The position numbers were made by a program, and so were the translations under genes. Positions 21,031 to 59,796 of a stretch of DNA of 64,000 bases are shown here, in pieces. The stretch is taken from the NCBI GenBank assembly GCA_963727805.1, contig CAVSHF010000003.1, positions 1,568,001-1,632,000 of the forward strand. The letters are read 5' to 3'. The number at the start of each line of letters is the position of its first letter. Position 1 is the first letter of the stretch. The notes below the pieces were generated by a model, which was not told where the DNA came from, did no database searches, and saw only the letters and a list, made by a program, of their open reading frames with translations. The stretch comes from an uncultured Nitrospiraceae bacterium (GTDB lineage: Bacteria > Nitrospirota > Thermodesulfovibrionia > Thermodesulfovibrionales > Dissulfurispiraceae).

Positions 21031-22151
21031 TGTTCTCCCCCTCTCGCCCCTTTCGGATGCTGGGATACCGGACCGGCCAGGACAGACCAAATGCGTTCAG
21101 CGGCGCGGCCGTCCCATTTTGACGGGGCGGAATAATTTACTGTTTTTTCCGGAATGGATTGGTATGCGCTCAAGATGCCTTCCTTTTTTGTACCAGCAAG
21201 AATATTCGTACCCGAGGTTAACGTAATCGGGCGCTCCGTATTTTGGCGAATTGTAATGCATGGAACACCAAGAGCGGTTGTCTCCTCCTGAAGTCCTCCG
21301 CTGTCAGTCATAACCGCCCGCGCATCCTTCCACAAGAATAAAGACTCCCGGAAACCCAGCGGCGGCAGAAGAATGACATTCTCAGAAAAGTTGATGTTGA
21401 AATAATCGATCATTTTCTTCGTGCGCGGATGGACTGGAAAAATAATCGGCTGTTTGACGGCAATCTCATTCAATGCAGAAGTAATACCCTGGAATATTTC
21501 TCTATTGTCTACGTTGGAAGGCCTGTGTAAAGTCAAAAATATATATGGATTTTTCTCTTTCTTCAATCTGCAAACTGAATATTGCTCAGGGTTTTCGGAC
21601 TTGAGAATCTCAAGTTGATGGAAGAGGTTATCGACCATTACGTTGCCTACAAAATGAATTCGCTCGGCAGGCTTCCCTTCATGGATTAAATTTTCGGTAC
21701 CGCTCTCCTCGGTGACGAAGAAACAGTCCGTTATGCTATCTGTCACCATGCGGTTAATCTCTTCAGGCATACAAAGATCGAAACTTCTCAGCCCCGCTTC
21801 GACGTGGGCCACTTTGATCATGAGTTTCTTAGCCGTAATACTGCAGGCTATCGTGGAATTTACATCTCCAACGACTATGACCCAGTCCGGCCTTTCCCGT
21901 AAACATACCTCCTCGAAGGCAACCATGATCTTTGCGGTCTGAACGGCATGAGAGCCCGAACCGGCTTCAAGGAAAAAATCCGGATGCGCAATTTCCAAAT
22001 CTTCAAAAAAAGATGAAGACATTTCATAATCATAATGCTGCCCGGTATGCACGATCCGGCAGTCCAAACCCTCAATTTGTTTTGCGGCCCTGTGGATCGG
22101 CGCTATTTTCATGAAGTTCGGACGGGCACCCGCAATCAGCAGTACCTTCAT
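21021..22151 (-). CDS. wecB: UDP-N-acetylglucosamine 2-epimerase (non-hydrolysing)
   Basis: GARPNFMK, HTGQHYD, HVEAGLRS, TDSGGLQEE. Confidence 0.95.
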   Translation of the reverse strand: MKVLLIAGARPNFMKIAPIHRAAKQIEGLDCRIVHTGQHYDYEMSSSFFEDLEIAHPDFFLEAGSGSHAVQTAKIMVAFEEVCLRERPDWVIVVGDVNSTIACSITAKKLMIKVAHVEAGLRSFDLCMPEEINRMVTDSITDCFFVTEESGTENLIHEGKPAERIHFVGNVMVDNLFHQLEILKSENPEQYSVCRLKKEKNPYIFLTLHRPSNVDNREIFQGITSALNEIAVKQPIIFPVHPRTKKMIDYFNINFSENVILLPPLGFRESLFLWKDARAVMTDSGGLQEETTALGVPCITIRQNTERPITLTSGTNILAGTKKEGILSAYQSIPEKTVNYSAPSKWDGRAAERIWSVLAGPVSQHPKGARGGEQCK

Positions 22152-41000: not shown

Positions 41001-44000
41001 CGGCAACGTTGAACCCGACTGGACTTCCAGTATATACGCTCCGGGCAAAAAGGCATAACGAGCATTTTGAGCAGAACCAAGAGGGATCATAGAGTAGTAA
41101 CCAGCAGCGAGTCCTCCAACACCTGATGGGAAATAGACCTCCGTTCCCGGCTGCTGAAACCCATTGTCCTTAAAAACAACATAGCGGTTGGTCTTAAGTA
41201 AAGGATCGTTAGTCCCGTTGAGGCCGGCCTGGAACTGAGCAGCATAGAGCGACCCGCCACCCTGCACGTCGACCTTTGCATCAGACATTATAATGGTTTT
41301 TCCTGCATTGAAAGTGACGCCTTTGGAGATCTGTTGGTACGGCGTTGCATTGCCGGAGCAGTTGCCGCCGTCACTGCAAAGAATTGCGTTGATAAGTGTA
41401 GGATCCATTTGGTACTGTGTAGCTTCTCTGGAAATATCACTGGCAGGCTTATATGGATCGACCCAGGCCCACTGACCATTGGAATCAACGACACCGTATT
41501 GGATCGGGATGATGCCGCTTGTCGTTAACAGAGAGCCAGCTCCAAGATAGATCATCTGGTCCGTGCCGGCGTTAAGCGTGATAGTCCCCATAGGGGCAGC
41601 CAGAGTTCCTCCCTCTATATCGATCCCGCCCTTGTCGGAGGTAACAGTCAGAGCTCCGGCGGCCGAATAGATAGGTCCTCCAACCGGCGTTTTGCTGGGC
41701 ATTATCTTGATGTCATTTGCGGCCTCGATAGTAAAGATTGAGTACACGCCTGGACACCATGTGATCGTCCCTGCCGCGGTACGCTCATACACATCGCCGG
41801 GATATATACGGTCGGCGGACAACGTCAGACTGCCGCCGGTGAATAATTGCCCAATCGTAGAAACACCCGAAGGCAATCCGACATAATTTACTGAGTTCAA
41901 GCGAATGTCCCGTGCCGCATCAAGCATGACATTACGAAAACCGCTGAACTGTACGCTGCCGATGACATCAATCCATCCAGTACTGGTGAGAGAAATGTCA
42001 GCTGTTGGGGAAGCTGTTGTCATATTCAATGTTGTCGGCAGATCCGTATTGGCCAAGACTATCCACGGTGCCTGAAGCGCTACGCTGCCCGCTCCCTCGA
42101 TAACATGGGCGTCGAGCGTCAGCTTCCTTCCCACAGTTGCACTCATGGCGTTTAGTGTCAGCGTGCCACGACTGACAAGAGAGATATCATCAAAGCCGGA
42201 TGTTGTATATCGCTGCATATCGATGCCACTTACGTCCATGTCGGTAAGATTAGTGATAGAGAGTTTTCCGCCCTGCAAGCCTGCCATCTTAGGATGAGCA
42301 TTAATTGTAGCTGTCAAATTGGCCGCACCGCTCGAATCGTATGTCAGATAAATGCTGCCAGGTTGTCCGGCATTCGTATATTTATAATAGTAAGAAGCAT
42401 TCGCATTCTGGGAGGACTGTGCAATAACATTCTGGACCGGACTCGATCCTGAGATATCAATGAACGACCCGTCGCTCATTGTCAGTGTCCCAGTCGTAAT
42501 GGAAACCGTTCCACCGTTAACCGGGATATAGTTTACGGGAAACCCCTTCAGCGGGGATGACCGATCAGGCTGGTTGTACCCCCCGGCCAATATACTGGCG
42601 CTGCTTCCAATCCGAAGGCTTCCGTTCACTGTCATAGTGATGTTTCCACTCAGCGATTCCAGAGTACCGTCAATATCTAGGTTATCAGGTGAAGCAAGTG
42701 TAATTGTTGAAGGTATGCTTGACGACGCTGGAGTGGGAGTTGTGCGTATAACAACTCCTGAAGAAACCGTTAGTTTCGCAGCAGGATTTCCCAATTTCCC
42801 GTATGCTCGCAGATGGTTCTGATATTGCGATCCGGTCGCAGGATCAAAATAAGAACCGTCAGGGTCCTTAGAAGCAGTCGCGCTAAAGGAGGACTGACCG
42901 GCCATATATGCGGTACTATCGTCAAGTCCATTAAGTCGAATGAGGTCTGGACGGCCGGCGCTACCAACAGACTGTCCGGTACCGAAGGCCGAGCCGCTCT
43001 GCCCGGTAGACAACGGATTATTCAGTCTCACCATGGATGGGGCAATGGTCGTGTTAGGATCTATAATAACAAATCCACCTGCATTAAGCGTGATCCTGGT
43101 AAAGCCCGCATCATCAAACCGGTTACCGGCAAGAAAGAATGTTACTGCGTTTGGATCCTGCATGTCCTGAGGAAGCGGCAAATACGCGCCAAAATCAGAC
43201 CGCTCAGCAGGCGTTGTTGTTGTCACCTCAATATTATGAGATTGCAGCGTTATAGATCCTCCCAAATACTTTCCTGTTGTATCGGCCAAGGCGTATCCAC
43301 GCAGATCGCCGTCAAGCATTAAAGTGTATCCCTGGATGGCCAAGTTTCCTGCATTGCCGCCAGTTACCTTGTACTTGGGGCTTATAATGTAGCCACCGCT
43401 AACATCAACAACAGCCCCGCTCTCTATAAAGACTCCTGCGCCAGCATCTGTTTCGTCCTTGATAGCTATGTTCCCACCGCTGATCTGTCCGGAACTCACG
43501 ATAGCTTTGTTTCCGTTTCCGGCCGGACTGTTATCGATCTTTTGCCCGGATACATCCAGAACGCTCCTCCCGCCGAGAATGATTCGCTGATCAGGCGGAT
43601 TGCTCGCACCATTCTCCCCAATGATCAAAGAAATAGAACCGGAGGGGACTGTAATGTCCCCTTGGTGTTCAATCCTGCGGGCTTCGGCTGAAAAACTACC
43701 GCCAGGCTGCAGATTAATACTTACGTTCGGCGCTGTCATGATGGTCGATAACGCCAGAAGATTAATCGTCCCGAGTTTAGCTTCGTTCAGAGTCCCAGCG
43801 GAAATTATGGTGGTACCTGAACTCAGTTGTGCAGCGATCGACGTTTCTGAAGCATCCGGAACAATGGAAATCGAAGTTGGCGCATATACTGAAGTCAGAC
43901 TCTGACTACCGATCGTCAATGTTCCAGAATGAGGAACCTCAAGTCCGCGAATCCATGAACACATCAAATCGTCATTGTCTGAAATCGGAGATGTTGAGGG

Positions 44001-46196: not shown

Positions 46197-46269
46197 TAAA
46201 AGGACCTTCCTTCTATAATCTTTCATCATTTTTTCCCGGTATATCTGCGATGAGTACCGATACCCGCAC

Positions 46270-46360
46270 AAAAAAGCCCGAATCAGGACAACAAACTGGC
46301 CTTGTCGATCCGGGCTTTCTGGTCCCATAACACACATATATGTTGGTCAGCAAAGTTCCC
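46270..46360 (-). promoter_or_regulatory. Attenuator-like RNA motif, copy A (antiterminator overlapping an intrinsic terminator)
   Basis: GGGAACTTTGCTGACC...GGGACCAGAAAGCCCGGATC...GATTCGGGCTTTTTT; homologous to 53489-53581 and 53432-53485. Confidence 0.7.
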
Positions 46361-46376
46361 TCTGATAACTTATTTA

Positions 46377-46422
46377 ATTATACCATTTACTCTGTTAAAT
46401 TATTGTTATAAAAATGTTACAA
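46377..46422 (-). promoter_or_regulatory. Pho-box-like promoter of tpsA
   Basis: TTGTAAC-n4-TTATAAC-n4-ATTTAAC-n11-TATAAT (extended TGn -10). Confidence 0.65.
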
Positions 46423-46695
46423 TTTTTAGCCCAACAAGTCATCATTCATGTTGTAAACGTTTTAGGTTAATCTATCTCACAAAGACTAGCATGATGCGAT
46501 AAATATTTTTTTGTTCAGTGATGCACATTCAGATCATTATTAACAGGGAGTTGATTCGCTGAAGTTCGCAAATATTTATGTCAACCCCAATAAAAATGGG
46601 AAGAAAAGTGTATCCGACGGAAACTTTCGTAAAGGCTTTTGTAACGATATACCACAAGATCTTATTGCGATGCTAGATCTGAGATTATATATCGG

Positions 46696-48360
46696 TTAAA
46701 GAAGACCCTTCACTTTAAAATATACCCTCTCGTCACCACTCCTTATCCTTCCTGAGGACTTCAGTGCCACAGCCCAGTCCAATTCATATTCCACGTGCTT
46801 CGTCACTGAGCCCCGCATTCCCGCACCAGTGCCCTGGAGTTCGACAGTCCTCGTCTGACTGGGAAGAGGTTGTAGTGTTGTTAGTCTAATGATGTCATAG
46901 AAGATATACGGGGTCATTTGAACTGTTTTTGCGATTTTTGAACCCTCAAACGGGGCCGGAAAGGATACTTCGACCGTACCATGTAGAGCATTATCCCCCA
47001 TAGCCTCGTTTTCCATGTATCCTCGGACACTTTCCATACCCCCTGAGCTATATTGTTCATTGTCGATAAGCGGTCCATCGGCAATCTGTCCGTCCAGTTT
47101 CATGAATAGACCCATGCCCAAGGGCAATTTCTGCATTCGCTGGATACCAGCAGTGACATAAAGGTAATTTGCCCTCGCTAGGTAGCGCTTGGTTTCGAAC
47201 TCCGACTCGCGTGAATTCACCTGCCTGAGGTTCAGGTTCAGCCCAGCGCTAAATTGCGACACGCCGCCCAATTCGTCAGGTAATGAGCTATTGTACGAAG
47301 CAGAAAGGGGTGAATACGTCACCGGCGTCTCAGTTATCTGGCCGGTTACCGGATTTGCAAATCCAAAGGACTGCTTGAAATGCTTGTAATCGAGACCCAA
47401 TGATATATTGTGTGTATATAGCTTGTACTGGGGAAGCGGGACCACATAACGAACCCCGAAAATCTGTCCTTTTCCGACTACCGCAAACCCTTCCCCGAAT
47501 GCAGTGTTGCTATCGGACCAGATGCCGTAAAAAACCAACTGATTGTCAACATTCCACGGTGCCGGAAGAACGTAAGAAAAACTCCATGCCTTCGTTTGAT
47601 TCAGATTCAGTGGCGCGGTCTGGTACTGAATCGAAATTGAATGCTCCTTCTGCCATAAATTATCGTAGCGGATCATAGCGTTCAACCGCAATTCAGTCGT
47701 ATCATGACTGGCTCGGTTATTGATTTCAAGATAACCGTGCAGTGGCAGGTGATCCTCAACCTTCAACTCCGCATCAATGGTCCCGAATTCCTGTCCGGGA
47801 GATATGGCGGGGTCAACCTTGAAATCCTGGTTCCTGTTAAGCCTACCTACCTCTTCATTGACCCTCGGCAGATAGAGTATCTCTCCAGGAGTGAAAGCCG
47901 GCAGGTCATGCATGATCTTTTCCTTTGTGAAATAGCGGTTGCCCGTGACTTTTACATTGCCTATCCGCGTCTCGATTACTTCTAGTTTAACAATGCCCTC
48001 CTTGAGAGTCTGAGCCGGTATATTCACCATAACAGCAGGATACCCTGCCTCGTGATAAAGTTTCTCGATGGCATCACGCGCTTTCTCCACGTCAGATGCC
48101 GTCTTTCCCATACCGATGAAAGGAGCTGCAGCACCCAACACCTTGCCCTTAGGTAAAATAGTGTTTCCGGTGATATCAAAGTCCTTGATCTCGAAATCCG
48201 TTTCCAAGTTAGCCGCCGCGCATACGCTCGCCATGGTGGCAAGAAGTGTCACGATGTAAATCCAACCACACAGGCAAGTAGACACTGAGACACTGAGAAA
48301 GAAGAAAAACTTAGTAGGCTTATTCATTGGAGAAGCCTTATCTTTAATCTTAAATCTCAT
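46696..48360 (-). CDS. ShlB/FhaC/HecB-family TpsB transporter
   Basis: POTRA (YHEAGYPAVMVNIPAQ), GGMESVRGY motif, beta-barrel C-terminus. Confidence 0.92.
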   Translation of the reverse strand: MRFKIKDKASPMNKPTKFFFFLSVSVSTCLCGWIYIVTLLATMASVCAAANLETDFEIKDFDITGNTILPKGKVLGAAAPFIGMGKTASDVEKARDAIEKLYHEAGYPAVMVNIPAQTLKEGIVKLEVIETRIGNVKVTGNRYFTKEKIMHDLPAFTPGEILYLPRVNEEVGRLNRNQDFKVDPAISPGQEFGTIDAELKVEDHLPLHGYLEINNRASHDTTELRLNAMIRYDNLWQKEHSISIQYQTAPLNLNQTKAWSFSYVLPAPWNVDNQLVFYGIWSDSNTAFGEGFAVVGKGQIFGVRYVVPLPQYKLYTHNISLGLDYKHFKQSFGFANPVTGQITETPVTYSPLSASYNSSLPDELGGVSQFSAGLNLNLRQVNSRESEFETKRYLARANYLYVTAGIQRMQKLPLGMGLFMKLDGQIADGPLIDNEQYSSGGMESVRGYMENEAMGDNALHGTVEVSFPAPFEGSKIAKTVQMTPYIFYDIIRLTTLQPLPSQTRTVELQGTGAGMRGSVTKHVEYELDWAVALKSSGRIRSGDERVYFKVKGLL

Positions 48361-48395
48361 TATATTTTCTATCTTTCCTCCGCATTGTTATTGCC

Positions 48396-48472
48396 GTCAT
48401 TCCCGAAGATGGTGACAGGAAATCCATTCTTATCAAGGTTAGGTGGCTACATACCTTCGCGGGTATGATGAC
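48396..48472. repeat. Degenerate REP-like palindromic element
   Basis: GTCATTCCCG...GGAAATCC...CGCGGGTATGATGAC resembles GTCATTCCCG/CGGGAATGAC-type intergenic palindromes; single copy in the window. Confidence 0.3.
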
Positions 48473-48495
48473 ATGTTCTAACTAGTGTCTGTAGC

Positions 48496-49485
48496 CTACT
48501 TTGCTTTGTCTTTCTCTGTGTCTGCGTTTATTTGTGATGAGTCGCCCTTTTGGTCCTCGGCCTGCTTCGCCTCTGTCTCCCGCTTACTGTCTTCAATCTT
48601 ATCGACCGTAACATCGCATGTCAGGGGTTCACGGCCGAAGGGGTTACGGTAATCCACAGTGATCAATGCATCATTCACAGACGTAATGCGGCCCACTAGT
48701 TGGCCCGTGCGTATAAGTGTACCCACTTTAGCATCAATTTTGATTTGAATTTCGTTTTCTGTCTCCAGGACTGAACCGGGGCCAAACGGTGTCTGCTCGA
48801 TAGTGCCTGGTACTGCTGAAAACCGCACAACCACTTCCTTATCAGTAACCGCCTCCACCCTTCCCGGGAATTTAGGGTCGATTATCACAGGTTGTCCAAC
48901 TTCAGCGGATTTACCTATCCGTTTCTCGTATTCTTCCAGAGGTATTTTCAATTCCCTTGGCCTCTTACGAACCCTGCTCAACTGGGCGACATAATTCTCT
49001 TCCGCCCTCCACGCTAAATCATCTGCTGTCAATTCCACGTGGCGGGTCTCGCCCACGTTCATGCCGACCACAACTGCCGCCAGGCGGCTGATTATCTCGT
49101 CCTCAAGAAGCAAGTCCTGTCCCCTTTGCTCTGGCGTGTGGAGATTGCTTGCCATGACCGATACAGGACCGCTTTCCCTCGTCGGCACAAACAGAGCTGA
49201 CTTGGGTTGATTCTCCGCGAGAGTGTCAGTGGAAGCTACAGCTTCCCCGTTCTTCAGCTTGCAAAGGTAACGGATGTCCGCAACGTCACCGGCCTGGATG
49301 ATCTTCACAGTGTCGGACTTTACAGTCTCGGGTTTGAAACTGTCTGTCTTTACGCTTGCCGTGGTGCCACAACCAGCCAGGAAAAGCATCAAACACAGAG
49401 ACATAATTGTGACTAGAGTTGAAAGTCGCGTGTTACGCGTGAAGACAATGCCCCAAAAACAACGTGCATCAAAAAAAGTAATCAT
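48496..49485 (-). CDS. FKBP/SlyD-like peptidyl-prolyl isomerase lipoprotein
   Basis: FLAGC lipobox; GDVADIRY, VGMNVGETRHVEL, ITVDYRNPFGREPLTCDVTV. Confidence 0.75.
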   Translation of the reverse strand: MITFFDARCFWGIVFTRNTRLSTLVTIMSLCLMLFLAGCGTTASVKTDSFKPETVKSDTVKIIQAGDVADIRYLCKLKNGEAVASTDTLAENQPKSALFVPTRESGPVSVMASNLHTPEQRGQDLLLEDEIISRLAAVVVGMNVGETRHVELTADDLAWRAEENYVAQLSRVRKRPRELKIPLEEYEKRIGKSAEVGQPVIIDPKFPGRVEAVTDKEVVVRFSAVPGTIEQTPFGPGSVLETENEIQIKIDAKVGTLIRTGQLVGRITSVNDALITVDYRNPFGREPLTCDVTVDKIEDSKRETEAKQAEDQKGDSSQINADTEKDKAK

Positions 49486-49927
49486 TAGATCCCTCCTTCA
49501 TTTAAATACCAAAGTCCGTACCAAAAAGGCACAATCTAACCTCAGAGACGCTTAATATGAAGAAAAATGAAAAGACCCAGTTGGCGTAACTTTTGTTTTG
49601 GTGACCTTGTTTTGCTAAGAAGTCCTCGGCAGCTTTCCGGTTTCCTCGCTCGCCACCTGCTGAAACAAAGTATCCATCTGTCAAGAATTCTCCCTACCTC
49701 TGCGCCTTCTTCACTTCTGCTTGCCTCCAAAATATTTCTCTTGACAGGATGCACTTGAAATTTCTCACAACCTGCCGAGGTGCCAATTTCGACCGAGTTG
49801 AGCATAAGACGTGCATATTCCTTGTCACACTTAAAATCTTCTATCTCAATCTCGTATCTCTTTCCCCTTCACGGCCACATAGGTCCACACCCAAATAGCT
49901 CACTTTACAGTCGTAGCAGTTATTACC

Positions 49928-50185
49928 CTAATGGGAACCAGGATCAAAATGGCCTTTCACACCTGTGCGATTGTCGATATCGATCGCCTTGTTATCGCGT
50001 AAGTTTCTGTCCCCTTTCTTATTTCTGACGTTTTTTTCTCCTGAACAACTTATTATTGCATTCAATTCCTCTGACTGTTCGACCCTTCCAAGGCTTCCCT
50101 GGCTGAAATTGATCTTGATGTAGCCGCTGAATTCTCCCTGCATAAGCTTTCGTATCGTCTCGATAAGCTCCTTCATCCTACTCAT
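49928..50185 (-). CDS. Small protein (85 aa); N-terminal ~40 aa YezD/DUF2292-like; paralogue of 53598..53732
   Basis: GGGGAGG RBS; MSRMKELIETIRKLMQGEFSGYIKINFSQGSLGRVEQSEEL. Confidence 0.7.
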   Translation of the reverse strand: MSRMKELIETIRKLMQGEFSGYIKINFSQGSLGRVEQSEELNAIISCSGEKNVRNKKGDRNLRDNKAIDIDNRTGVKGHFDPGSH

Positions 50186-50406
50186 ATACTTCCTCCCCAA
50201 TGTAGCATAGCGCAAGAAACATGACGCCACGCCAGTAGCTAAGTTCGAGAGCCTAAAAGCCATCTGAAATCACAAAGGGCAATGTGCAAATCTCTGAGGA
50301 AGCAAAGAGTTCTTCCATATCCCTATACCCTGTTATTACCCTATGATCCTGGCCCTGCCACAATGAAGTAGATCAAAGGAATGCAGTCCAAACAATCAAG
50401 TTTTCT

Positions 50407-50441
50407 ATCTTAACAATTTGTTTGTTACATCAATATTACGA
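50407..50441 (-). promoter_or_regulatory. Pho-box-like promoter
   Basis: TCGTAAT-ATTG-ATGTAAC-n11-TAAGAT; nearly identical to the site at 34801-34818. Confidence 0.55.
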
Positions 50442-50854
50442 CAACATCAAGTATTCAACATCTTTCATTCAATACCTAGCAAAACACAAGAAAACATTTA
50501 GAAACACAGATAAAGGAACCCACTCACCCGGATTAAAGAAGCTGTCCGATAATTGAAGGACCGGCGTTTAGCTGCTCATGGTGGCTTAATTACCCAATGC
50601 ACCAAATACTGCTTCGCGGGGTAATTAATGCCGGTTTTGTATCCGCTGCGATACAAGCAATTACCCGCATTCATGTAGTCCATATTGTTCCGATTGAAGC
50701 CGCCATATCGGGTTGGAACCACTGTGAGGCTTACGGTCAGATCATCAAAAATTCATCAGTGCCGCCAGAGCAGATCTTTCCGAGAAGGGAATACAGACCG
50801 CTGACATAAGGCAAATGATAATTATGAAATGTTGCTTCAGTGTTACTACTGTAG

Positions 50855-50884
50855 AAAAAGGCAGGGCCTCATCAGAGGCCCTGC
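50855..50884 (-). terminator. Intrinsic terminator after the PstS-like gene
   Basis: GCAGGGCCTC-TGAT-GAGGCCCTGC followed by CTTTTT. Confidence 0.85.
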
Positions 50885-50939
50885 ATGGAATCAACTCATG
50901 TGACAGACTACAAAATCAAAATCAGTGTTTCTTCCCCTT

Positions 50940-52442
50940 TTAATTATAGGGAAACGGTGCCACTGCGGGACAATTAACAATCGGAAGACGAAAAACAGGC
51001 ATGCCACAGCCAGTCCTCCAATACGTCATCTGGCAATTTGTTGCATATGACGGGTCATTTTGGTTACCTGGATCAGCTGCAAAGGAAAGCATGGCCTGCT
51101 GATAGGCATCCGGAGCAGCAGGTGTATAGAAATTCTCAACTGTCCAGAAGTTGTAGGTGCCATCCAAGACGTGAGTCTTGACATCATTTGTCGTAGTGGG
51201 CACGCAGTATCCATTTGCAGGGGGTGTTCCGGCTCCACAGTCCGAATTCTTAGCACAAGAGCCCCCGTTGAAGGCATGGTTCCCAGCGCACCATCTTGGA
51301 AGGCCATACCCAGCATCAGCCGATACACCGTTTAGTGAAAGCCTGATAATATTTGGATATGTGGAAGCATTACCGTTAAAATCTGTCTCCGCGGCAACCA
51401 GCTGATCGGCATCAGAATAGCCGATAGCTAACGGCTGGTTTGCTACGGTACCCCATGTCCATGTACCGCTAGTTACACCATTTACGCAGTTAAGCAAATC
51501 GGGGCTGCCATCGTTGAACCAATAGGCGTAACCCGCAGTCGGCAGTGCAGGCACCGGGGATAGCTCGGTAGAAGCTGCAATCAGAGGTGCCTTCATCTGT
51601 GTGGCAGCTATAGTGGCATGAGTGCCTGAACCGGCATGGCGCATACATACTTGCATGTTCTGACCGGCAGCGTACTTGTCGGTGACGGCTCCGCTGTTTC
51701 CGCCCATGTCGTCCCATAACTCTATCTGACCAGAGAAGATCAGATTCACTTCTGCAGTCGTGATATTACTGATCGGGTTGCCATTGCGTAACAATACATT
51801 CTTATTTGCAAAGAAGGCAAAAGGAACGACTACCGGGTGGGCATCATTAGCGCCATAGCCATTTACTGAACCGACTCCAGCAAAATTACGAGTAATCGGC
51901 ACCGGCACGCCATGAGACTTGTCGCCTAACGGCCCATACTGTGAGCCAGAAGATGTCTGGGTAAAGCAACCTTGCTCCACGTCAGACGCACCTATGGTTA
52001 CCTTCTCGCAACGCAGGGAGGTACCTGCTGTAGTCGGATCTGCCATTGCGCGAAAGCCAGGCAAGCATGCTGCACCTACCGTACCATTCGCTGCTATAGC
52101 ATGATCAATTTGGGAATTATTAGCAGAACAGTTAAGATTGCCGGCGGGATCACTAGCTATAGCGCAAAGGCCGTCATAAGAAGCCTTCGAAGCTATACCG
52201 ATATAGTCACCCGCAGCATTGTAGGCAACACAATGTTTAGAGTCATAACACTTCGTGGTGACGCCAGCAGGGCCGCATGTTGTTGCTAGAAAAGGCCCGG
52301 CTTGATCCTTCCAGAAATTAAACTGGGCGGAAGCGCCGTAAATAAACTGGGCAGGGTCACATACCGCCGCCATGGCTGAGCCGGCAAGGCCAAACAGCAT
52401 GGCTCCTGCAGCAATCGATGCAATTATCTTTCTGATTGTCAT
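50940..52442 (-). CDS. Secreted Cys-rich PstS-like (periplasmic binding fold) protein
   Basis: Signal peptide; IGASDV, VVVPFAFFAN, NITTAEVNLIFSGQIELWDD, RHAGSGT (compare PstS RxxGSGT), AIGY; 18 Cys. Confidence 0.7.
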   Translation of the reverse strand: MTIRKIIASIAAGAMLFGLAGSAMAAVCDPAQFIYGASAQFNFWKDQAGPFLATTCGPAGVTTKCYDSKHCVAYNAAGDYIGIASKASYDGLCAIASDPAGNLNCSANNSQIDHAIAANGTVGAACLPGFRAMADPTTAGTSLRCEKVTIGASDVEQGCFTQTSSGSQYGPLGDKSHGVPVPITRNFAGVGSVNGYGANDAHPVVVPFAFFANKNVLLRNGNPISNITTAEVNLIFSGQIELWDDMGGNSGAVTDKYAAGQNMQVCMRHAGSGTHATIAATQMKAPLIAASTELSPVPALPTAGYAYWFNDGSPDLLNCVNGVTSGTWTWGTVANQPLAIGYSDADQLVAAETDFNGNASTYPNIIRLSLNGVSADAGYGLPRWCAGNHAFNGGSCAKNSDCGAGTPPANGYCVPTTTNDVKTHVLDGTYNFWTVENFYTPAAPDAYQQAMLSFAADPGNQNDPSYATNCQMTYWRTGCGMPVFRLPIVNCPAVAPFPYN

Positions 52443-52481
52443 GATATTTTCTCCTTTGATTTTTTATTACCGCTTATTGTC

Positions 52482-53222
52482 CTAAACTGCCATCTTCCTG
52501 CGGATACCGAGCAGACCCAGGAGGCTCGATCCCATCAGCAGGATTGAGGGCGGAACCGGTGTAGCTGTAATAGGATCCAGCTCGGTATGGCCGTCAGCAT
52601 ACGTCCTGAGGTCAACAGCAACCACTGTTTGAGTAAGGGAGCCCCTACCCGCAGGGGCAGAGGGATAATAGTACAGCACTTGGTCAATATAAGAGGTTCC
52701 GATCTTAGCCTCGATGGTTCCCGTTGTGACAGAGCCAGTCATTGTACCTGTACTGCTCCCAGAGAGATCAGCCTGAGTCCAATAAGAATCAGCATTTGAT
52801 TGTGCCAAAGTAGCGTAGGTAAAAGCGCCAGACGTTACGTTGGTGGCAAGAGCCGCATAGGTAGGAGCTATAGCCTGTGTAGCGTTCAGCATACCAACCT
52901 TAATAGTCCCAGGATTAACAACCTGAGTTGCAGCGCCACTCAAATATAACGGATAGCCAAGAGCAGGCTGTGAAAAATAGGCAACAGAATAGCCACTGAG
53001 GCTGCCAAGTCCTAATACGCTTGAAACATTGTTAGTGAAAACCTGATTGCCCGTATCGGTCGTCCTTGAAATAGCTCCAAGGTCAACTGCATACTCATTC
53101 CCTACGCCGCCGGTCTGATAAAGTACCTCGATAAGGTCACCCGTTGCAAACGCAGCCATCGCCTGTCCGCTGAAAGCAAACATAAGCACGGCTACTGCAA
53201 GAAGCATTATGATTTTTTTCAT
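52482..53222 (-). CDS. PEP-CTERM/VPLPA-CTERM-type sorted surface protein
   Basis: Signal peptide; Thr/Gly/Ala-rich body; C-terminal TPVPPSILLMGSSLLGLLGIRRK sorting signal. Confidence 0.9.
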   Translation of the reverse strand: MKKIIMLLAVAVLMFAFSGQAMAAFATGDLIEVLYQTGGVGNEYAVDLGAISRTTDTGNQVFTNNVSSVLGLGSLSGYSVAYFSQPALGYPLYLSGAATQVVNPGTIKVGMLNATQAIAPTYAALATNVTSGAFTYATLAQSNADSYWTQADLSGSSTGTMTGSVTTGTIEAKIGTSYIDQVLYYYPSAPAGRGSLTQTVVAVDLRTYADGHTELDPITATPVPPSILLMGSSLLGLLGIRRKMAV

Positions 53223-53257
53223 TTTGTTCTCCTGAGTTATTGTGGATTATTTCTTAC

Positions 53258-53335
53258 CCTCAGGCAACCCGGCCATCCACTCGCATGGATCCGTAGGCTT
53301 TCCGTCATCCGGTCACCCGGACTTTGGCCTTATAC
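53258..53335 (-). ncRNA. Cyclic di-GMP-I (GEMM-I) riboswitch
   Basis: AAGGCCAAAGTCCGG-GTGA-CCGGATGACGGAAAGCCTACGGATCC...GGATGGCCGGGTTGCC, ~40 nt upstream of the start codon; G at the G20-equivalent position. Confidence 0.88.
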
Positions 53336-53431
53336 TGGAGGCTGGATGCCGGCTAACCCGTCATCCTACCTTAATTTGCTCCAATCAAGCGAAACCTGTC
53401 ACCTCCCCTTTTTTTTGTAATTCCCAAGCTT

Positions 53432-53485
53432 AAAAAGCTCTTATATCCGGGCTTTCTGTTACCTTCACAGGTCAGCCAAGTACCC
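53432..53485 (-). promoter_or_regulatory. Attenuator-like RNA motif, copy C (compact; terminator weak or absent)
   Basis: GGGTACTTGGCTGACCT-GTGA-AGGTAACAGAAAGCCCGGAT. Confidence 0.6.
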
Positions 53486-53488
53486 TAT

Positions 53489-53581
53489 AAAAAAAGCCCG
53501 AATCGATAAGAAAAGACTTCTTTTCTCGATCCGGGCTTTCTGGTGCCGAAGCAAATAAAACTGTCGGTCAGCAAAGGACCC
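53489..53581 (-). promoter_or_regulatory. Attenuator-like RNA motif, copy B, with intrinsic terminator
   Basis: GGGTCCTTTGCTGACCGA...TCGGCACCAGAAAGCCCGGATCGAGAAAAG-AAGT-CTTTTCTTATCGATTCGGGCTTTTTTT. Confidence 0.72.
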
Positions 53582-53597
53582 TAATGATGCTGCTTCG

Positions 53598-53732
53598 TTA
53601 CTTCCTTAGTATCTCTTCAAACTTCTCAACTCTCTGAATGGCCCCGCCTGCAAAATTAATTTTTATGTATCCAGTGAACTTCTTGTCCATTAGGTCCTTG
53701 ATAATATCCATGATTTTTTGTAACCTCTCCAT
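53598..53732 (-). CDS. Small protein (44 aa, below the track cut-off), YezD/DUF2292-like
   Basis: MERLQKIMDIIKDLMDKKFTGYIKINFAGGAIQRVEKFEEILRK; shares F.GYIKINF..G...RVE..EE with 49928..50185. Confidence 0.78.
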   Translation of the reverse strand: MERLQKIMDIIKDLMDKKFTGYIKINFAGGAIQRVEKFEEILRK

Positions 53733-53799
53733 CGCTTTCCGTTATTCTCTACTCTGGATATTCCGTTGAACCTTCCCGATTTCATCGCTTCTTGCCCAA

Positions 53800-53844
53800 A
53801 TCATAACAGTTGAATGTTACAGCTTGATGACAGTAAAATTACAA
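53800..53844 (-). promoter_or_regulatory. Pho-box-like promoter of the leader/PEP-CTERM operon
   Basis: TTGTAAT-TTTA-CTGTCAT-CAAG-CTGTAAC-n10-TATGAT (canonical Pho-box geometry). Confidence 0.72.
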
Positions 53845-53851
53845 TCAGGTT

Positions 53852-54190
53852 AGTATTGTTTATCCGTTTTATTTCAGAGACTTGTATCTTCTTAACTTAG
53901 GTACTTAGGTTTGCAATTTAACAATCGAGTGATCCACACAGCTATTGGTATTAAGATAACGTGGGCTAAAGAAATGCCCGAGGGACAATGCTCCGTTTCG
54001 ACAGTAATTGACATGCAATTTTTGCGCTCATTTCGTTGACTAATTTCTCTTAATAGACAGACCAACCGGAAGCGTACGGCGCTTCCGCTATCGTTTTAAC
54101 GTCGCTGTCATTCATTTGTCAATATCCCGTCATCAATTGACCGATATGCTTATAAAAGTCTGTCCCCCTGGCCTCCCCGTCTTTTTTTTA
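53852..54190 (+). repeat. Non-coding direct repeat, copy 1 (~340 bp)
   Basis: Aligns by eye with 57414-57763 (shared GTGATCCACACAGCTATTGG, CAATTTTTGCGCTCATT, GCTTCCGCTATCGTTTTAACG, CCGTCATCAATTG). Confidence 0.9.
54094..54150 (+). promoter_or_regulatory. Four-unit Pho-box-like promoter (repeat copy 1)
   Basis: TTTTAAC-n4-CTGTCAT-n4-TTGTCAA-n4-CCGTCAT-n11-TATGCT. Confidence 0.7.
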
Positions 54191-54603
54191 TGTTAAATGC
54201 TGAAGATGTGGAGATAAAAGACTATCTATATGGCTTTTTTGTTACAAGCCTTGAGCTTCCGGCTCATCTTGTCTGGACAAACTACTGGATGCGGGCAGAT
54301 GCACAGAACATGTTTAAGGAACTGAAGGACGATTTCGGTGCTGACAATTTCAATATACAGATTTTCTGCGTCACTGAGCCACTGAAAGGGCAAGGAACTG
54401 CGTCATGATAGCCGATAACCTGATGAGTCTTTCCAGGCAGTCGGTCTTGTGCAATAGCGTATTCTCCAGCCTTTTCGAGGTATGCGCCGACTGCAGTGGT
54501 TTGAAAAACTCCGGTGCAAATCATAAGGATTGTGATCTGCCTGCGTCCTCCCCTTCGCATCGCTAATGACAATTATGGATTAGAAGAGCGTGAATAATCC
54601 TAG
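54190..54603 (+). mobile_element. Degraded IS1380-like transposase 3' remnant
   Basis: YGFFVTSLELPAHLVWTNYWMRADAQNMFKELKDDFGADNFN...IADNLMSL with frameshifts; possible right end GTGAATAATCCTAG. Confidence 0.6.
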
Positions 54604-54711
54604 ACCGGCCCCTGAAGCTTAAGGAAGCTGGGACCTTCACGACAGCAAGAGTCTCTTAGTCCGCGTGTCCAGGCCATCTCCGACGATGCAGCCTTCGGCT
54701 CGTTTCTGCGT

Positions 54712-56940
54712 TCAGCGTTGGCTCGCGTCCCCATGCACTTCCCAGAGCTGGAAGAAGGGAGACTGGAGGGCGACAGGCGTGAAATAGCGCGGTGGCGCTT
54801 CGTGTCGGAGAAAGAGTATATTAAACACCGATGCGGCGATCTGCTCATCCATTACGGCGCCAAATTGCATAGGTTGCAGTATTTCCAAATGGCTGCCGGG
54901 TGTTCCGTAGCTGCGACGAACAATTTTATCGTTGTCTATGATGAGAAGCTCAGTCACTCTGAAAGCCTTGCCCCGAGCCGTCCCTTCCCCCGACGTAAGG
55001 TTTACTCGCAACCCCTCTTCGGACAGTAGCTCATCGTTCTCCTGCCGGATTCCCTGAAACGACTCGTATGCCGGGTGCCGTCCCTCCTCTGGCCTGCCCT
55101 GCCACGTCCCGGCCCAGTACCACGTATATGCGCTTCGCGTCAGAGAATAATCAAGGAACAGGTATAGGGGTCGGCTTGTCGAGGGATAGAGGTAGTTCAG
55201 CCATTCGTCCGTGGTTCTGAGGTCACCCTCCGGGCTCAACGCTGTCGATGCCAGGATGGTCCTCCCCTTTTCCGGTCCGGCGCCCAGAACTTCCTTGATG
55301 AGTGCGAACCCCTTTTTCCGGTCACCCCCCACGGCCCGGTAGATCCGTTCCATACCGTCCATTCCGTGAGTGGCATAGAACTTCATGAAATTGGCTGATA
55401 GACGGAAGTTGCTCGTGGCCAAGGGGAGCCAAAGATAGACGCTAAGCCCCGGACTCATGATCGCCCCATCCGCTAAGGTGGCTCGGTCCGCCCAGTACAG
55501 GAGCGGATATCCTTGGTCCCAAGACGCCCAAAGGATCGCATCGGCGGGTGTCTTTTCTCCGGCCAACTTCATTCCCGCCGCCACCGCAGGATGCACGCTC
55601 GGGTGGAGTAGTGTCCGAGGAAAGGCAGCATGATAGAGCAGCACTCCGATCAAGACTGTGGCAATCGCTCCTACCGCCTTCCTACCTTTATCCGTAAACT
55701 GGGAGGCGACCACATGAACCAGGTAACCCAAACCGAGAGCCATCATCGGTGTGAGAAAAATGATGAAACGCACGCCGCGGAAATAGGAAGACAATCCAAT
55801 GATAAGCGGAGAGACAAAAATCGATAACTCCTTCGGATACTTTCGGATTAAAAGAACGAGCCCAACAAAAGAAGCCACCAACAGCAACACGTTGCCCGAG
55901 GCAAAATGGGCGAACTCGGTAAACGGTAACCTCTTCATCTCTGAAACATCGAATCCGATTGTAGGGAAGAAATCTTCCCCACTCCCCGAGAATAGAAACC
56001 GGGTATATCCAGCAAGAACTTGAAACCCCGATAGCAGCTGCCGCCCTGCTAGCAAAGCCGCAATTGTGATAATTGATGCGAGTAAGCCGAAAAACACCGC
56101 TGCTTCCCTGCGGTGTGGCCGGTAAAAGAGAGCCAATGCCACACAAAACGGCGGCAAACAGAGAAGAGTGCCGTTGGCAATCGTTTCTCCCCAAGCCCAG
56201 AGGAGGAGCAAATAGGATACCCCCCATCCGGCAAAATCTAGGTACCTTTTCCGGGATTGTATAGTTCCGAAACGGAGGGCAAAGTAACATGCTGACACTG
56301 ATAGCAAAACCTCGAGCCCGTCGGGGCGGAAAAAGGCGAAGTTGGTACGGTAAGTGTAAAAGGGTGCCAACAGAGTCGCTAAAGCGGCCACCAGCCCGGC
56401 TATAGGCCCACCGAATCTCCTTCCTGCAAAATAGACGGGGAAGGCGACAAGGATACCGATCATAGGCGCTAGCAGGGCACCGATCCAAGTATAGGCGGCA
56501 CCGGTAATCTTGGCGACCGCAGCCGAGAGGACAGAGAGTAGTGGTGGAAGCAGGGGCCGCACTACCAAATGGTCTGGCACTCCTCGCTTATCGTCCGTCT
56601 TACCATAAGTTCCGGCGATCAGATCACGACCCAGCCGTAGGTAGTGATATCCATCGCTCTCGAAAAGCATGGGTTGGCCCTGAAAGAAAGTTTGCTGAGG
56701 CTTCGTGCGCCAGACTTGGAGCGTTTCGATGCGGACATAGAAGCCAACGGCGAGCACTAGTGCCAATAAAACCGCTGAAACGCTCCAGATGTGAAAGACA
56801 CCGGGCTTTCCGCTGGTTTCGTTCCATGCCTGATTCTGGTTGGGTCCTGCGGGCGGCTCAGACGCTGCATTGGGGCGCGCACGCGAATGAGAGACTTGAA
56901 GGGGTGGGGCGCCACGCAATCTTTTCTTTCGCGATGCCAT
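54712..56940 (-). CDS. STT3/PglB/AglB-like oligosaccharyltransferase
   Basis: Multi-TM N-terminal region with FESDGYHYLR; SWDQGY (WWDxG variant) followed by RATLADG. Confidence 0.82.
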   Translation of the reverse strand: MASRKKRLRGAPPLQVSHSRARPNAASEPPAGPNQNQAWNETSGKPGVFHIWSVSAVLLALVLAVGFYVRIETLQVWRTKPQQTFFQGQPMLFESDGYHYLRLGRDLIAGTYGKTDDKRGVPDHLVVRPLLPPLLSVLSAAVAKITGAAYTWIGALLAPMIGILVAFPVYFAGRRFGGPIAGLVAALATLLAPFYTYRTNFAFFRPDGLEVLLSVSACYFALRFGTIQSRKRYLDFAGWGVSYLLLLWAWGETIANGTLLCLPPFCVALALFYRPHRREAAVFFGLLASIITIAALLAGRQLLSGFQVLAGYTRFLFSGSGEDFFPTIGFDVSEMKRLPFTEFAHFASGNVLLLVASFVGLVLLIRKYPKELSIFVSPLIIGLSSYFRGVRFIIFLTPMMALGLGYLVHVVASQFTDKGRKAVGAIATVLIGVLLYHAAFPRTLLHPSVHPAVAAGMKLAGEKTPADAILWASWDQGYPLLYWADRATLADGAIMSPGLSVYLWLPLATSNFRLSANFMKFYATHGMDGMERIYRAVGGDRKKGFALIKEVLGAGPEKGRTILASTALSPEGDLRTTDEWLNYLYPSTSRPLYLFLDYSLTRSAYTWYWAGTWQGRPEEGRHPAYESFQGIRQENDELLSEEGLRVNLTSGEGTARGKAFRVTELLIIDNDKIVRRSYGTPGSHLEILQPMQFGAVMDEQIAASVFNILFLRHEAPPRYFTPVALQSPFFQLWEVHGDASQR

Positions 56941-57918: not shown

Positions 57919-59796
57919 TTAATACGTGCTTATTCTTCTATCTCTGATTATTGAAGAACCTTTCTGCATCTTTGCCAAATTCTTAACCTCTGTGGCTATA
58001 GAAGCCAGTTGCGCATATGAATCAATCTTGCCAGCTTCCGTGCTTACAATTCCGATTGAAAGCGACAAAAGATCGAATTTCTCTGTTTCTCCTTTTCTGT
58101 TTTTTGAAGTGTAAGCTCCCTTTTCAAAATCTTCCATCCCATGGAATTCCGGCAAACTTGATGCAAATTTATGGATTATCTTCTCCGATACAGTTACCGA
58201 AATTGATGGGCGGGTCAAAAGTATAAAGTCATCACCTCCGATATGCCCGACGAAGTTAAACCTGTCGTTATCAACGGCACTCATAGCGTCATTGATAATA
58301 CCGGCTAGACATCGGATTACCATATCTCCTTTTTCGAATCCGTAGTGGTCGTTATAAGGCTTGAAATTGTCCAGGTCTATATAGCACGCATCGAATTGCA
58401 TGTTTTGGGACAGCCTCTTTTCAATCTCTTTTTGAATAGACACATTTCCCGGAAGTCCGGTAAGCGGGTTGCAGTTCTTTGCGGTACTGATGCTGCGTTC
58501 CGTCATGGCCTCCAGAAGGTCGCTAACCGCCACCGTTCCGCGATATCGACCATGTGTCGTCACGATAAGATCGTCATATAGAAAAACCGCCTCCCGTGCA
58601 TTGACCCTCTGTGCCACGTGTTCGAGCGAAGCGTTCTCATCGACCAGCAGAAAACGCCGTTCCATCACGGCGCCTATATTCTTGTACGAATTGAGGTACA
58701 TGCCATATCCGAATCTTCCCAGTATCTGCTGCTCAGTGAACCTTGTCCTGTGCAGCATCCCGAGCACGGTGCCTTTTACAACAACAGGCAGGCCCCTGAG
58801 TCCTGTATCTCCCGAGAACCTGCCGACTGCTTTCGCAAATGGATCCGCAGGGTATATGGGATCAACTTTGCGGCAGATGTCGCCGATTACATTGAAATGA
58901 CGACCGGTGTTGTTGTCGCATCTGTTGCAGTTCGTTTTTGAACGGCCGACCGTTGTAAAAAGATTTTCATTGACAGCAAGAGAGGGGGATGGTTTACCCA
59001 GGAGGTATCCCTGCAGCAATTCAAAGCCCATATTAATAACGACATCCAACTCTTCCTGAAGCTCTACACCCAGAGCAATGACTTCGATGCCAATCCTGTG
59101 ACATGCAGTGGCGATGGATTCCAGGAGGTTAAACTTTATGGTACTCCTATCAATGTCGGCTATAAAGTGCCGGTCTATCTTTACAAAATCCGGCTTTAGC
59201 GCAGAGAGTATCTTTAACCCGCCCAGCCCAGCCCCAAAATCATCAATGGCTATTTTGTACCCTTGCGCCCGATAGTGGGCGATCGCATCCTTGAAAAGAG
59301 TGTAATTTTCTACGGCCGTTTCTTCAGACAGTTCAAGAACGATCTTCTCCTTAGGCATCCCCCACTGTTCAGCAATCTCATCTGTGATGCCGACTTTGTA
59401 TTGCGAGCACATCAGCGTCTCCGGGCAAATGTTGATGAACAGGTATGATTGTTTCTCTTTAAGCCCCAGCAATGCCGCTTCACGAATTGCATTGCGCCTG
59501 CAGTGCAGGTCGAGGGATGATATCACGTTAGTCTCTTTGGCCTTTCGGAATAGATCGGCGGTATTGCCGAAAGGATTATTATATCCCGATTGTATACGAC
59601 TAAGTGCCTCGTATCCATACACTGAGCCGTCAGTCGCAGAAAGTATAGGCTGGAAGTAGATAGCAAATGCTTCACTGTCGATTAATTCGTATATTACTTC
59701 TTTGTAAAGATTGAATTCGCTTTGTGCATGGGATTTACTAGAACCTATCTCAAAATTAAAATGATGTATCATAAAGGATGCGTTTGAGTGATGCAC
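57919..59796 (-). CDS. EAL-CBS-GGDEF(GGDDF) protein; 5' end interrupted by IS5 (original start 60588)
   Basis: FQPI, GYEALSR, IDDFGAG, QGYL; CBS pair; NPLTGLPGN, DLDNFKPYNDHYG, HIGGDDF. Confidence 0.9.
   Translation of the reverse strand: MHHSNASFMIHHFNFEIGSSKSHAQSEFNLYKEVIYELIDSEAFAIYFQPILSATDGSVYGYEALSRIQSGYNNPFGNTADLFRKAKETNVISSLDLHCRRNAIREAALLGLKEKQSYLFINICPETLMCSQYKVGITDEIAEQWGMPKEKIVLELSEETAVENYTLFKDAIAHYRAQGYKIAIDDFGAGLGGLKILSALKPDFVKIDRHFIADIDRSTIKFNLLESIATACHRIGIEVIALGVELQEELDVVINMGFELLQGYLLGKPSPSLAVNENLFTTVGRSKTNCNRCDNNTGRHFNVIGDICRKVDPIYPADPFAKAVGRFSGDTGLRGLPVVVKGTVLGMLHRTRFTEQQILGRFGYGMYLNSYKNIGAVMERRFLLVDENASLEHVAQRVNAREAVFLYDDLIVTTHGRYRGTVAVSDLLEAMTERSISTAKNCNPLTGLPGNVSIQKEIEKRLSQNMQFDACYIDLDNFKPYNDHYGFEKGDMVIRCLAGIINDAMSAVDNDRFNFVGHIGGDDFILLTRPSISVTVSEKIIHKFASSLPEFHGMEDFEKGAYTSKNRKGETEKFDLLSLSIGIVSTEAGKIDSYAQLASIATEVKNLAKMQKGSSIIRDRRISTY

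Follow-up and report, generated by a model that had tools for sequence, protein, structure and literature searches.

We analysed a 64,000-nucleotide (nt) stretch of DNA from an uncultured Nitrospiraceae bacterium of the family Dissulfurispiraceae (GenBank assembly GCA_963727805.1, contig CAVSHF010000003.1, positions 1,568,001 to 1,632,000; hereafter the window), in which a small open reading frame (ORF) on the minus strand encodes a protein of 44 amino acids (aa) and is followed by a structured RNA motif that overlaps an intrinsic transcription terminator. An earlier note on this DNA had put this protein forward as an antiterminator, acting on the motif in cis and, in trans, at a giant two-partner-secretion gene (tpsA) further downstream. 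The data presented below describe a conserved gene and a conserved RNA attenuator, and tentatively keep the protein as the candidate factor of the latter. The features on which the argument turns, in the order of their transcription, are as follows.

53800-53838, minus strand: promoter-like box TTTTACTGTCATCAAGCTGTAACATTCAACTGTTATGAT, recognised in an alignment of 10 upstream regions, ~70-105 nt 5' of the small ORF
53598-53732, minus strand: small ORF (short paralogue), a 44-aa cytoplasmic protein with an ATG start and a TAA stop at 53600-53598
53533-53581, minus strand: motif copy B1, proposed antiterminator, a bulged hairpin GGGUCCUUUGCUGAC-[P2]-CACCAGAAAGCCC (covariance model R1, 58.7 bits, E 3e-14)
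53489-53541, minus strand: terminator of B1, a long hairpin plus a run of 7 U, with 5' strand AGAAAGCCC
53449-53485, minus strand: motif copy B2, a short form in tandem with B1, its P2 capped by a GUGA tetraloop (R1, 52.5 bits)
53260-53338, minus strand: cyclic di-GMP (c-di-GMP)-I riboswitch aptamer (RF01051; 52.1 bits against a gathering score of 35), directly 5' of the first structural gene
46377-46385, minus strand: putative extended -10 promoter element TGGTATAAT, recognised from its sequence 5' of motif copy A
46312-46360, minus strand: motif copy A, in the tpsA leader (R1, 51.7 bits)
46270-46320, minus strand: intrinsic terminator of copy A (-25.4 kcal/mol)

The small ORF, whose 44-residue product is MERLQKIMDIIKDLMDKKFTGYIKINFAGGAIQRVEKFEEILRK, is a genuine and strongly conserved gene under purifying selection at the protein level. 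Across 17 aligned genes of the family, codon positions differ 3345 times at the third, 1539 times at the first and 969 times at the second base, and codons 19-44 hold 1445 synonymous versus 801 non-synonymous differences. The family alignment revealed a core, FTGYIK(I/V)NF(S/T)QGx(I/V)GR(I/V)EKFEEILKK (also written FTGYIK(I/V)NF..G...(R)(V/I)EKFEEILKK), that is near-invariant across phyla, preceded by a variable N-terminal helix. An identical protein exists in the protein collection, and a word-indexed search recovered relatives in 37 clusters (34-73 aa, 61-100% identity) with 'hypothetical protein' as their sole label. HMMER searches of 1.84 billion representatives of clusters at 50% identity enlarged the family to 288 proteins at E ≤ 1e-3 and 175 at E ≤ 1e-10, with lengths of 36-123 aa in nearly all of the 150 matches listed. 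Its members are basic, with a median isoelectric point (pI) of 9.5 and 86% of 176 proteins exceeding pI 8. NCBIfam (E ≤ 10) and Pfam provided no family for the small protein, and hmmscan of both the 44-aa protein and its 85-aa paralogue returned 0 families at E ≤ 1. Scanning of one genome per species yielded 104 tblastn-confirmed matches, from which 77 loci were retained as the base of all locus counts given here; they come from Nitrospirota, Syntrophales/Smithella, Syntrophobacteraceae, Desulfobacterales (including Desulfosarcina) and Geobacteraceae. Geobacter argillaceus, Geomesophilobacter sediminis and Desulfosarcina alkanivorans are among the carriers available in culture. A metagenome-assembled genome (MAG) labelled as Pedobacter (locus L129, genome G314) also holds a motif copy (38.8 bits) and the small protein (E 2.7e-21), both on short contigs, which corresponds either to horizontal transfer into Bacteroidota or to mis-binned contigs.

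The RNA element begins at G 53581, and 16 nt (53597-53582) separate the stop codon of the small ORF from attenuator B. Its consensus, GGGUaCUUuGCUGAC, a variable hairpin and (A)ACCAGAAAGCCC, recurs across related loci, and the covariance-model match of copy B1 spans positions 53530-53583. The irregularities of the hairpin are a UA/UC bulge, a bulged G and an AC bulge on the 3' side. The stretch AGAAAGCCC is at once the 3' strand of the motif and the 5' strand of the terminator, which renders the two structures mutually exclusive. No clear terminator follows copy B2 within the window. Copies B (53481-53582) and A (46261-46361) are 78% identical across 60 nt, and the tpsA ORF as listed, of 3768 aa, starts at ATG 46337, inside the latter motif, its likely start being ATG 46196. 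The spacing of 16 nt, the placement of the ORF immediately before an element that overlaps a terminator and is found again in the tpsA leader, and the existence of a paralogue at 49928-50185, all of which had been pointed out in the earlier note, were borne out on recounting and realignment; the first 44 aa of the paralogue are 43% identical to the small protein, and it matches the family profile with E 2.2e-19.

Fold energies of the motif amount to -15.7 (B1) and -11.0 (A) kcal/mol, versus -28.8 (B1) and -25.4 (A) kcal/mol for the respective terminators, and the terminator dominates both the minimum-energy and the centroid folds of the whole leader. Since the terminator is far more stable than the motif, the default state should be termination just behind the small gene, and read-through would need something that stabilises the motif hairpin. 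The hairpin itself is well supported by the alignment of 67 motif copies: its 14-pair structure leaves 89.3% of cells paired, compared with 53-56% when partners are slid by one column, and its covariation score of 0.166 exceeded those of all 500 shuffles. Compensatory double changes from U-A to C-G were found at two pairs of the conserved stem P1, and the distal stem covaries freely; as the 67 copies were chosen by sequence pattern, the invariance of the conserved stem is partly a selection effect. No meaningful match to an Rfam 15 family covers positions 53446-53583 or 46309-46362, even in a sensitive scan of 391 nt at E ≤ 10; c-di-GMP-I, at its own site, was the sole family matched.

Seven copies of the motif were identified in the genome, all of them on one contig between 1.547 and 1.697 Mb, three of these being in the window. 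The four copies outside it are likewise associated with terminators, and lie 5' of genes for two sorting-signal proteins, one signal-peptide protein and one cytoplasmic protein of 130 aa; both sorting-signal proteins combine a signal peptide with a C-terminal TPIP, a hydrophobic stretch and a basic end. At least five of the seven copies have no small ORF upstream.

Upstream of the small ORF, the promoter-like box combines three CTGT(N)A repeats, placed at intervals of 12-13 nt, with a TATGAT hexamer resembling a -10 element, an arrangement common to relatives of two phyla. It probably acts as a promoter, and could be the site of a response regulator. We rejected a sigma-54 promoter for a conserved GG...GC stretch, whose spacing, scored by eye, is 8 and not 12. 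Downstream, the leader holds two different RNA switches in series, the new motif and then the c-di-GMP-I riboswitch, and in 12 of 19 related loci the motif is likewise followed by a riboswitch of this clan, in some cases matched best as the GGC or UAU variant. Between terminator and riboswitch there is also a purine box, AAGGGGAGGUGA at ~53398-53410 (minus strand), which reads AAGGAGGUGAU in many relatives; the latter is a near-perfect complement of the 16S rRNA tail. The box is followed by no start codon at a normal distance, and a CCUCC occurs ~50 nt beyond it.

The genes that follow this leader, all of them on the minus strand as well, are listed next.

52482-53222, minus strand: secreted protein of 246 aa with a PEP-CTERM-like C-terminal sorting signal (TPVP, hydrophobic helix, RRK); its PF07589 match, E 0.042, is below cut-off
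50940-52442, minus strand: secreted PBP-like protein of 500 aa, used as the cluster control gene (PF12849, E 8e-8)
49928-50185, minus strand: long paralogue of 85 aa, which shares the N-terminal domain of the small protein and continues into a basic tail, probably disordered; a GGAGG box stands 7 nt ahead of the ATG
48496-49485, minus strand: FKBP-like lipoprotein, with weak family matches only
46696-48360, minus strand: TpsB, an outer-membrane transporter of the ShlB/FhaC type (PF03865, E 1.5e-16; POTRA_2, E 3e-14)
35031-46196, minus strand: giant TpsA, with a probable start at the in-frame ATG 46196 and a signal-peptide-like N-terminus thereafter

This gene order, that is, small protein, motif(s), riboswitch, 246-aa PEP-CTERM-like protein, 500-aa PBP-like protein, long paralogue, FKBP-like lipoprotein, TpsB and TpsA, is widely kept. 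A homologue of the 246-aa protein was found in 46 of the 77 loci, downstream of the small ORF, and homologues of the 500-aa protein, the FKBP-like lipoprotein and TpsB were found in 49, 22 and 11 loci, respectively, the last two counts being limited by locus length. As judged from their N-termini and Pfam matches, the remaining conserved products of the cluster carry signal peptides or are outer-membrane proteins. Given that these products are exported, the two paralogues would be the sole cluster-specific cytoplasmic candidates able to meet nascent RNA.

The small protein and the motif are strongly associated across genomes. The motif (E ≤ 0.01) was present in 62 of the 77 protein loci, and on the same strand downstream of the small-ORF stop it occurred within 700 nt in 50 of them, within 150 nt in 42 and within 20 nt in 21; the distance from stop to motif varies from 0 to more than 400 nt, reaching 470, and is mostly 4-11 nt in the closest group. 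Among 151 Nitrospirota genomes, the motif was found in seven and the protein in six, all six within the seven, the seventh showing a single weak match. Both occurred in the same three of 151 Desulfobacterota genomes. All five genomes reached via chosen loci, namely four named isolates and Smithella sp. SCADC, also contained the motif, and ten genomes with a motif-free protein locus had it elsewhere in eight cases, with none in two MAGs. Altogether, 21 of 23 protein-bearing genomes carry the motif. The converse search, an RNA-first scan of genomes with a DNA pattern whose first 80 loci were mostly chance matches in unrelated phyla, and from which only loci confirmed by the covariance model were used, added at least 12 further motif genomes, and nine of those 12 carry the protein. 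In one of the three protein-free genomes, the contig ends 20 nt 5' of a motif that precedes homologues of the 246-aa and 500-aa proteins, and the small gene may simply be unassembled there.

Within this collection, eight loci of the Geobacteraceae type (L025, L026, L042, L058, L063, L064, L066 and L072) have H for Y at residue 22 of the protein, and in these loci the 5' strand of the motif reads CCUUG, CCAUG, CUUGACC or CUUAGCC in place of CUUUGCUG. This co-change is probably one clade-level event among kin, and we treat it as a lead on co-variation of protein and RNA, not as evidence.

We next consider the protein itself. AlphaFold2 modelled it from a 53-row alignment with a predicted local distance difference test (pLDDT) score of 85.8, as a helix (residues 2-16) and two strands (22-28 and 31-38), which reproduces the helix plus beta-hairpin pattern that the earlier note had read from the sequence. 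Folding of two copies reached a score of 0.47 as compared with 0.00 for the best of three controls, a mark attained by 20 of 30 proteins solved as same-chain pairs and by one of 23 solved as single chains, and three runs agreed in all contacts. In the predicted dimer the partner has a pLDDT of at least 77, and strand 1 pairs with strand 1, residue 24 facing residue 24, in a symmetric arrangement. These models support a symmetric homodimer.

The kinship with the uncharacterised YezD/DUF2292 proteins (PF10055) that the earlier note had suggested did not hold at the level of the family. The small protein has no match to the Pfam hidden Markov model (HMM) at the 22-bit cut-off, and none of 33 scored candidates from all six reading frames of the genome matched PF10055 at E ≤ 10. 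Comparison by hhalign of two family alignments (A2 and A5) with 15 bona fide DUF2292 members taken from the same phylum (A4) was insignificant (P 0.071 and 0.056, respectively; probability 0.8-1.0%), and the weak A2 alignment uses the very register that had been pointed out. The 15 of 151 genomes of the phylum sample that bear DUF2292 differ from the six that carry the small protein family. What the two share, by prediction, is a helix followed by a two-stranded hairpin with a two-residue turn; the AlphaFold2 model of a DUF2292 member (helix 4-26, strands 31-38 and 41-49) has this same architecture. As far as the models go, the resemblance is real only as a very simple shared architecture, and homology is not established thereby.

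Other candidate relatives were also discarded. A lead to Hfq/Sm-like proteins (PF17209), prompted by a short similar stretch, gave P 0.39 when A5 was compared by hhalign with 10 Hfq domains of relatives (A7), and EntV, the best match among the sequences of solved structures (E 0.51), was taken as chance. A wide VIA-align search, in which a 44-residue query has little power, produced a best Z of 3.5 (the MinE topological specificity domain and GnsA) with nothing standing out. Neither Foldseek nor VIA-align matched a DNA-binding fold, and the best scores in the ESM Atlas (0.76), to unnamed clusters, were uninformative.

Two features of antitermination systems are found together at this locus: an RNA target that is mutually exclusive with an intrinsic terminator, and a candidate regulator encoded upstream in the same transcription unit. 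We read the system as a case of terminator-antiterminator control, whose agent would be either a small protein dedicated to it or a ligand. Tentatively, and short of an even chance, we favour the former, that is, that the small protein is a cluster-specific, HutP-like antiterminator acting on the motif, in a layer of control placed on top of the c-di-GMP riboswitch. The short member of the pair would suit such a role by being small, basic, cytoplasmic, presumably dimeric and specific to a mobile surface-protein cluster. Its gene would be transcribed first, from the conserved promoter, and the transcript would end at the terminator by default until enough protein had accumulated for the dimer to bind and stabilise the bulged hairpin as an antiterminator. 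Polymerase could then proceed via the second motif copy and past the c-di-GMP-I riboswitch to the structural genes. In trans, the protein might also open other copies of the motif, such as those in the tpsA leader and in front of the genes for other sorting-signal proteins.

Known systems offer partial precedents. HutP of the Bacillus subtilis hut operon is a hexameric, histidine-dependent protein of ~148 aa that binds spaced UAG triplets. As in hut, the gene of the proposed regulator opens the operon and is separated from the structural genes by an intrinsic terminator, and the protein would act on the RNA for read-through; in contrast, the protein has 44 aa, is a predicted dimer and would target a bulged hairpin, and no relation to HutP was seen in its sequence or, with the little power of so short a query, in its fold. 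The CAT domain of BglG, SacY and LicT is a small, dimeric, beta-rich module that stabilises an imperfect hairpin, the RAT, overlapping the 5' half of a terminator. The logic proposed for the motif, in which the 3' part of the hairpin is the 5' half of the terminator, is the same, but CAT is of another fold family and is fused to PRD domains regulated by the phosphotransferase system (PTS), whereas the small protein is a standalone helix plus one hairpin without a Pfam match. A sigma-54 site with the PrsK/PrsR/PrsT proteins was reportedly noticed upstream of PEP-CTERM genes by Haft and colleagues in 2006. It resembles the motif as a dedicated cis element that lies before many exosortase-substrate genes and whose distribution matches that of dedicated regulators, with the difference that it is a DNA promoter operating at initiation, and the present element an RNA hairpin-terminator operating at elongation with another candidate regulator.

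Several observations weigh against the small protein being the factor of the motif. One is that the 500-aa control gene occurs in the same six of 151 Nitrospirota genomes as the small protein. The co-occurrence of ORF family and RNA motif, which the earlier note had named as a check on its idea, is hence strong but cluster-level, and does not by itself point to the small protein in particular: protein and RNA travel together because the entire cluster moves as one. Their adjacency, in turn, is accounted for by operon order, the motif being located in the leader of the next gene. The motif is missing from 15 of the 77 loci within the examined DNA (up to ~8 kb) and was not found on searching two protein-bearing MAGs, and in several Desulfobacterales the small gene is directly followed by the secreted-protein gene. 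The motif copies used to train the covariance model were drawn from these same 77 loci, and genomes of kin do not count as independent. As for the protein, much of the conserved strand 1 falls within the predicted dimer interface, and the most invariant exposed stretch, EKFEEILKK, is rich in acidic residues, which is atypical of an RNA-binding surface. Foldseek against the PDB, again with the little power of a 44-residue query, gave no match at E < 1, and no known RNA binder is found among the relatives. Finally, a small bulged hairpin that overlaps a terminator and occurs in tandem equally resembles a ligand-sensing ON riboswitch.

A serious rival, although less likely than not, is that the motif is such an ON riboswitch or another attenuator independent of protein, in which a metabolite or second messenger would stabilise the bulged hairpin against the terminator, and that the small protein is just the product of the first gene of the operon, with another role in the surface-protein cluster. 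The compactness of the hairpin, the conservation of its bulges, the free covariation of its distal stem and the overlap of P1 with the terminator would be in keeping with this, as would the motif standing alone, with no small ORF nearby, before at least four other genes of the genome, and the co-occurrence with the cluster being shared equally by the control gene. Tandem copies and placement in series with c-di-GMP-I in 12 of 19 loci are typical riboswitch behaviour; indeed, in tandem transcriptional ON riboswitches of the c-di-GMP-I class (RF01051), too, the closing helix competes with a terminator, and they too control biofilm and surface genes. The motif differs from these by having no match in Rfam and, among the genomes sampled, by being restricted to those with one gene cluster: nine of the 10 motif-bearing genomes among 302 have this cluster, the tenth being that with a single weak match, and such confinement would be unusual for the sensor of a common metabolite. 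Moreover, most of its conserved nucleotides are in helices already constrained by terminator mimicry, which leaves little obvious pocket for a ligand.

Another explanation, which we regard as improbable, assigns both paralogues to protein-protein signalling or adaptor modules, in which the long form would be anchored to, or cooperate with, the membrane or periplasmic FKBP-like lipoprotein, whereas the short form would be free. By way of a protein partner or DNA, the pair would link expression to the state of the envelope or of secretion, or else they would escort the secreted products from the cytoplasmic side, and in neither case would they operate via the RNA motif. The domain of the long paralogue is in one frame with a hydrophobic/lipobox segment and an FKBP-like domain in two relatives, P0176 (360 aa) and P0180 (353 aa), and in two others, P0152 and P0155, it ends in a C-terminal hydrophobic segment. 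The in-frame joins may represent a membrane-tethered protein that partners the short form, or else a pair of genes that happen to lie in one frame, and a lipobox inside a protein would be atypical, which detracts from their reading as fusions. The acidic character of the exposed, invariant EKFEEILKK, the free edge strands of the predicted symmetric dimer and the direct co-operonic arrangement of the small gene with the secreted-protein gene where the motif is absent would all fit an adaptor. Against it stand the lack of any match to a DNA-binding fold and the overall basic nature of the family, and it would leave a cluster-specific RNA motif without a cluster-specific factor.

Finally, pure translation-coupled attenuation, according to which the ORF would be a leader peptide without a function of its own and a ribosome at its stop would cover the 5' strand of the antiterminator and decide between hairpin and terminator, is very unlikely: a stop 0-20 nt (mostly 4-11 nt; 16 nt here) before the motif, from which a terminating ribosome would occlude GGGUAC, is seen in 21 of 77 loci, but this distance extends to 100-470 nt at other loci, 25 residues of the peptide are conserved in both phyla and its fold is predicted with confidence, no motif copy lies near or upstream of the long paralogue in the window (a covariance-model scan of 45900-54800 with the filter off gave just B1, B2 and A), and, as the earlier note had argued for copy A, coupling to an ORF cannot explain those copies, at least five of seven in the genome, that have none upstream.

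Weak motif copies upstream of the long paralogue do occur in relatives. Returning to the small protein as antiterminator, this proposal can be extended into a bolder one to which we assign quite a low probability. The cluster would then be a horizontally mobile, self-contained module of elongation control, in which the 44-residue dimer, encoded just ahead of its own RNA target, opens a new kind of bulged-hairpin antiterminator at all exosortase-substrate and TpsA genes and the long paralogue, sometimes joined to the periplasmic FKBP-like lipoprotein, titrates it by heterodimerisation; the status of the envelope or of secretion would thereby gate read-through, upstream of and in series with the c-di-GMP riboswitch.

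Both the protein family, which spans two phyla and has no Pfam or NCBIfam model, and the RNA attenuator, which is not in Rfam 15, appear to be undescribed in the libraries and literature searched. Our queries of the literature covered exosortase antitermination, PEP-CTERM riboswitches, DUF2292/YezD and variants of c-di-GMP-I, and yielded a description of neither, nor anything on the function of DUF2292/YezD; nothing relevant was found in passages of PMC10599522. This attenuator precedes exosortase-substrate genes and a giant two-partner-secretion gene, and is arranged in series with c-di-GMP riboswitches. If the small protein is the factor of the motif, biofilm-matrix genes would integrate a second signal with c-di-GMP at the stage of transcription elongation, and the 44-residue dimer would count as a minimal antiterminator, one of the smallest such proteins put forward so far and accessible by peptide synthesis. 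Should the motif turn out to be a riboswitch, it would represent a new orphan class linked to the production of surface proteins. Either reading lends itself to a direct test with the motif RNA of 49 nt and the 44-aa peptide.

The window is an exosortase and polysaccharide island that encodes EpsH fused to DUF3485 (19432-21090) and many sugar enzymes. A protein with EAL, GGDEF and CBS domains is encoded upstream of the cluster (57919-59796, minus strand), which would fit control of the island by c-di-GMP. Three motif-controlled secreted proteins, the 246-aa product (52482-53222, minus strand) and those at loci L082 (701-1333, minus strand) and L083 (1623-2300, plus strand), end in T(A)TP(I/V)P, a hydrophobic helix and an R/K-rich tail; by their sequence, C-termini of this type are a PEP-CTERM-like variant that misses the Pfam cut-off. 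One motif-terminator copy of this same genome (locus L079, contig C3, ~1554911-1554964, minus strand) precedes the 130-aa cytoplasmic protein, which has no Pfam match and an N-terminus that looks, by eye, like a ribbon-helix-helix, and which could be a further regulator within the motif regulon.

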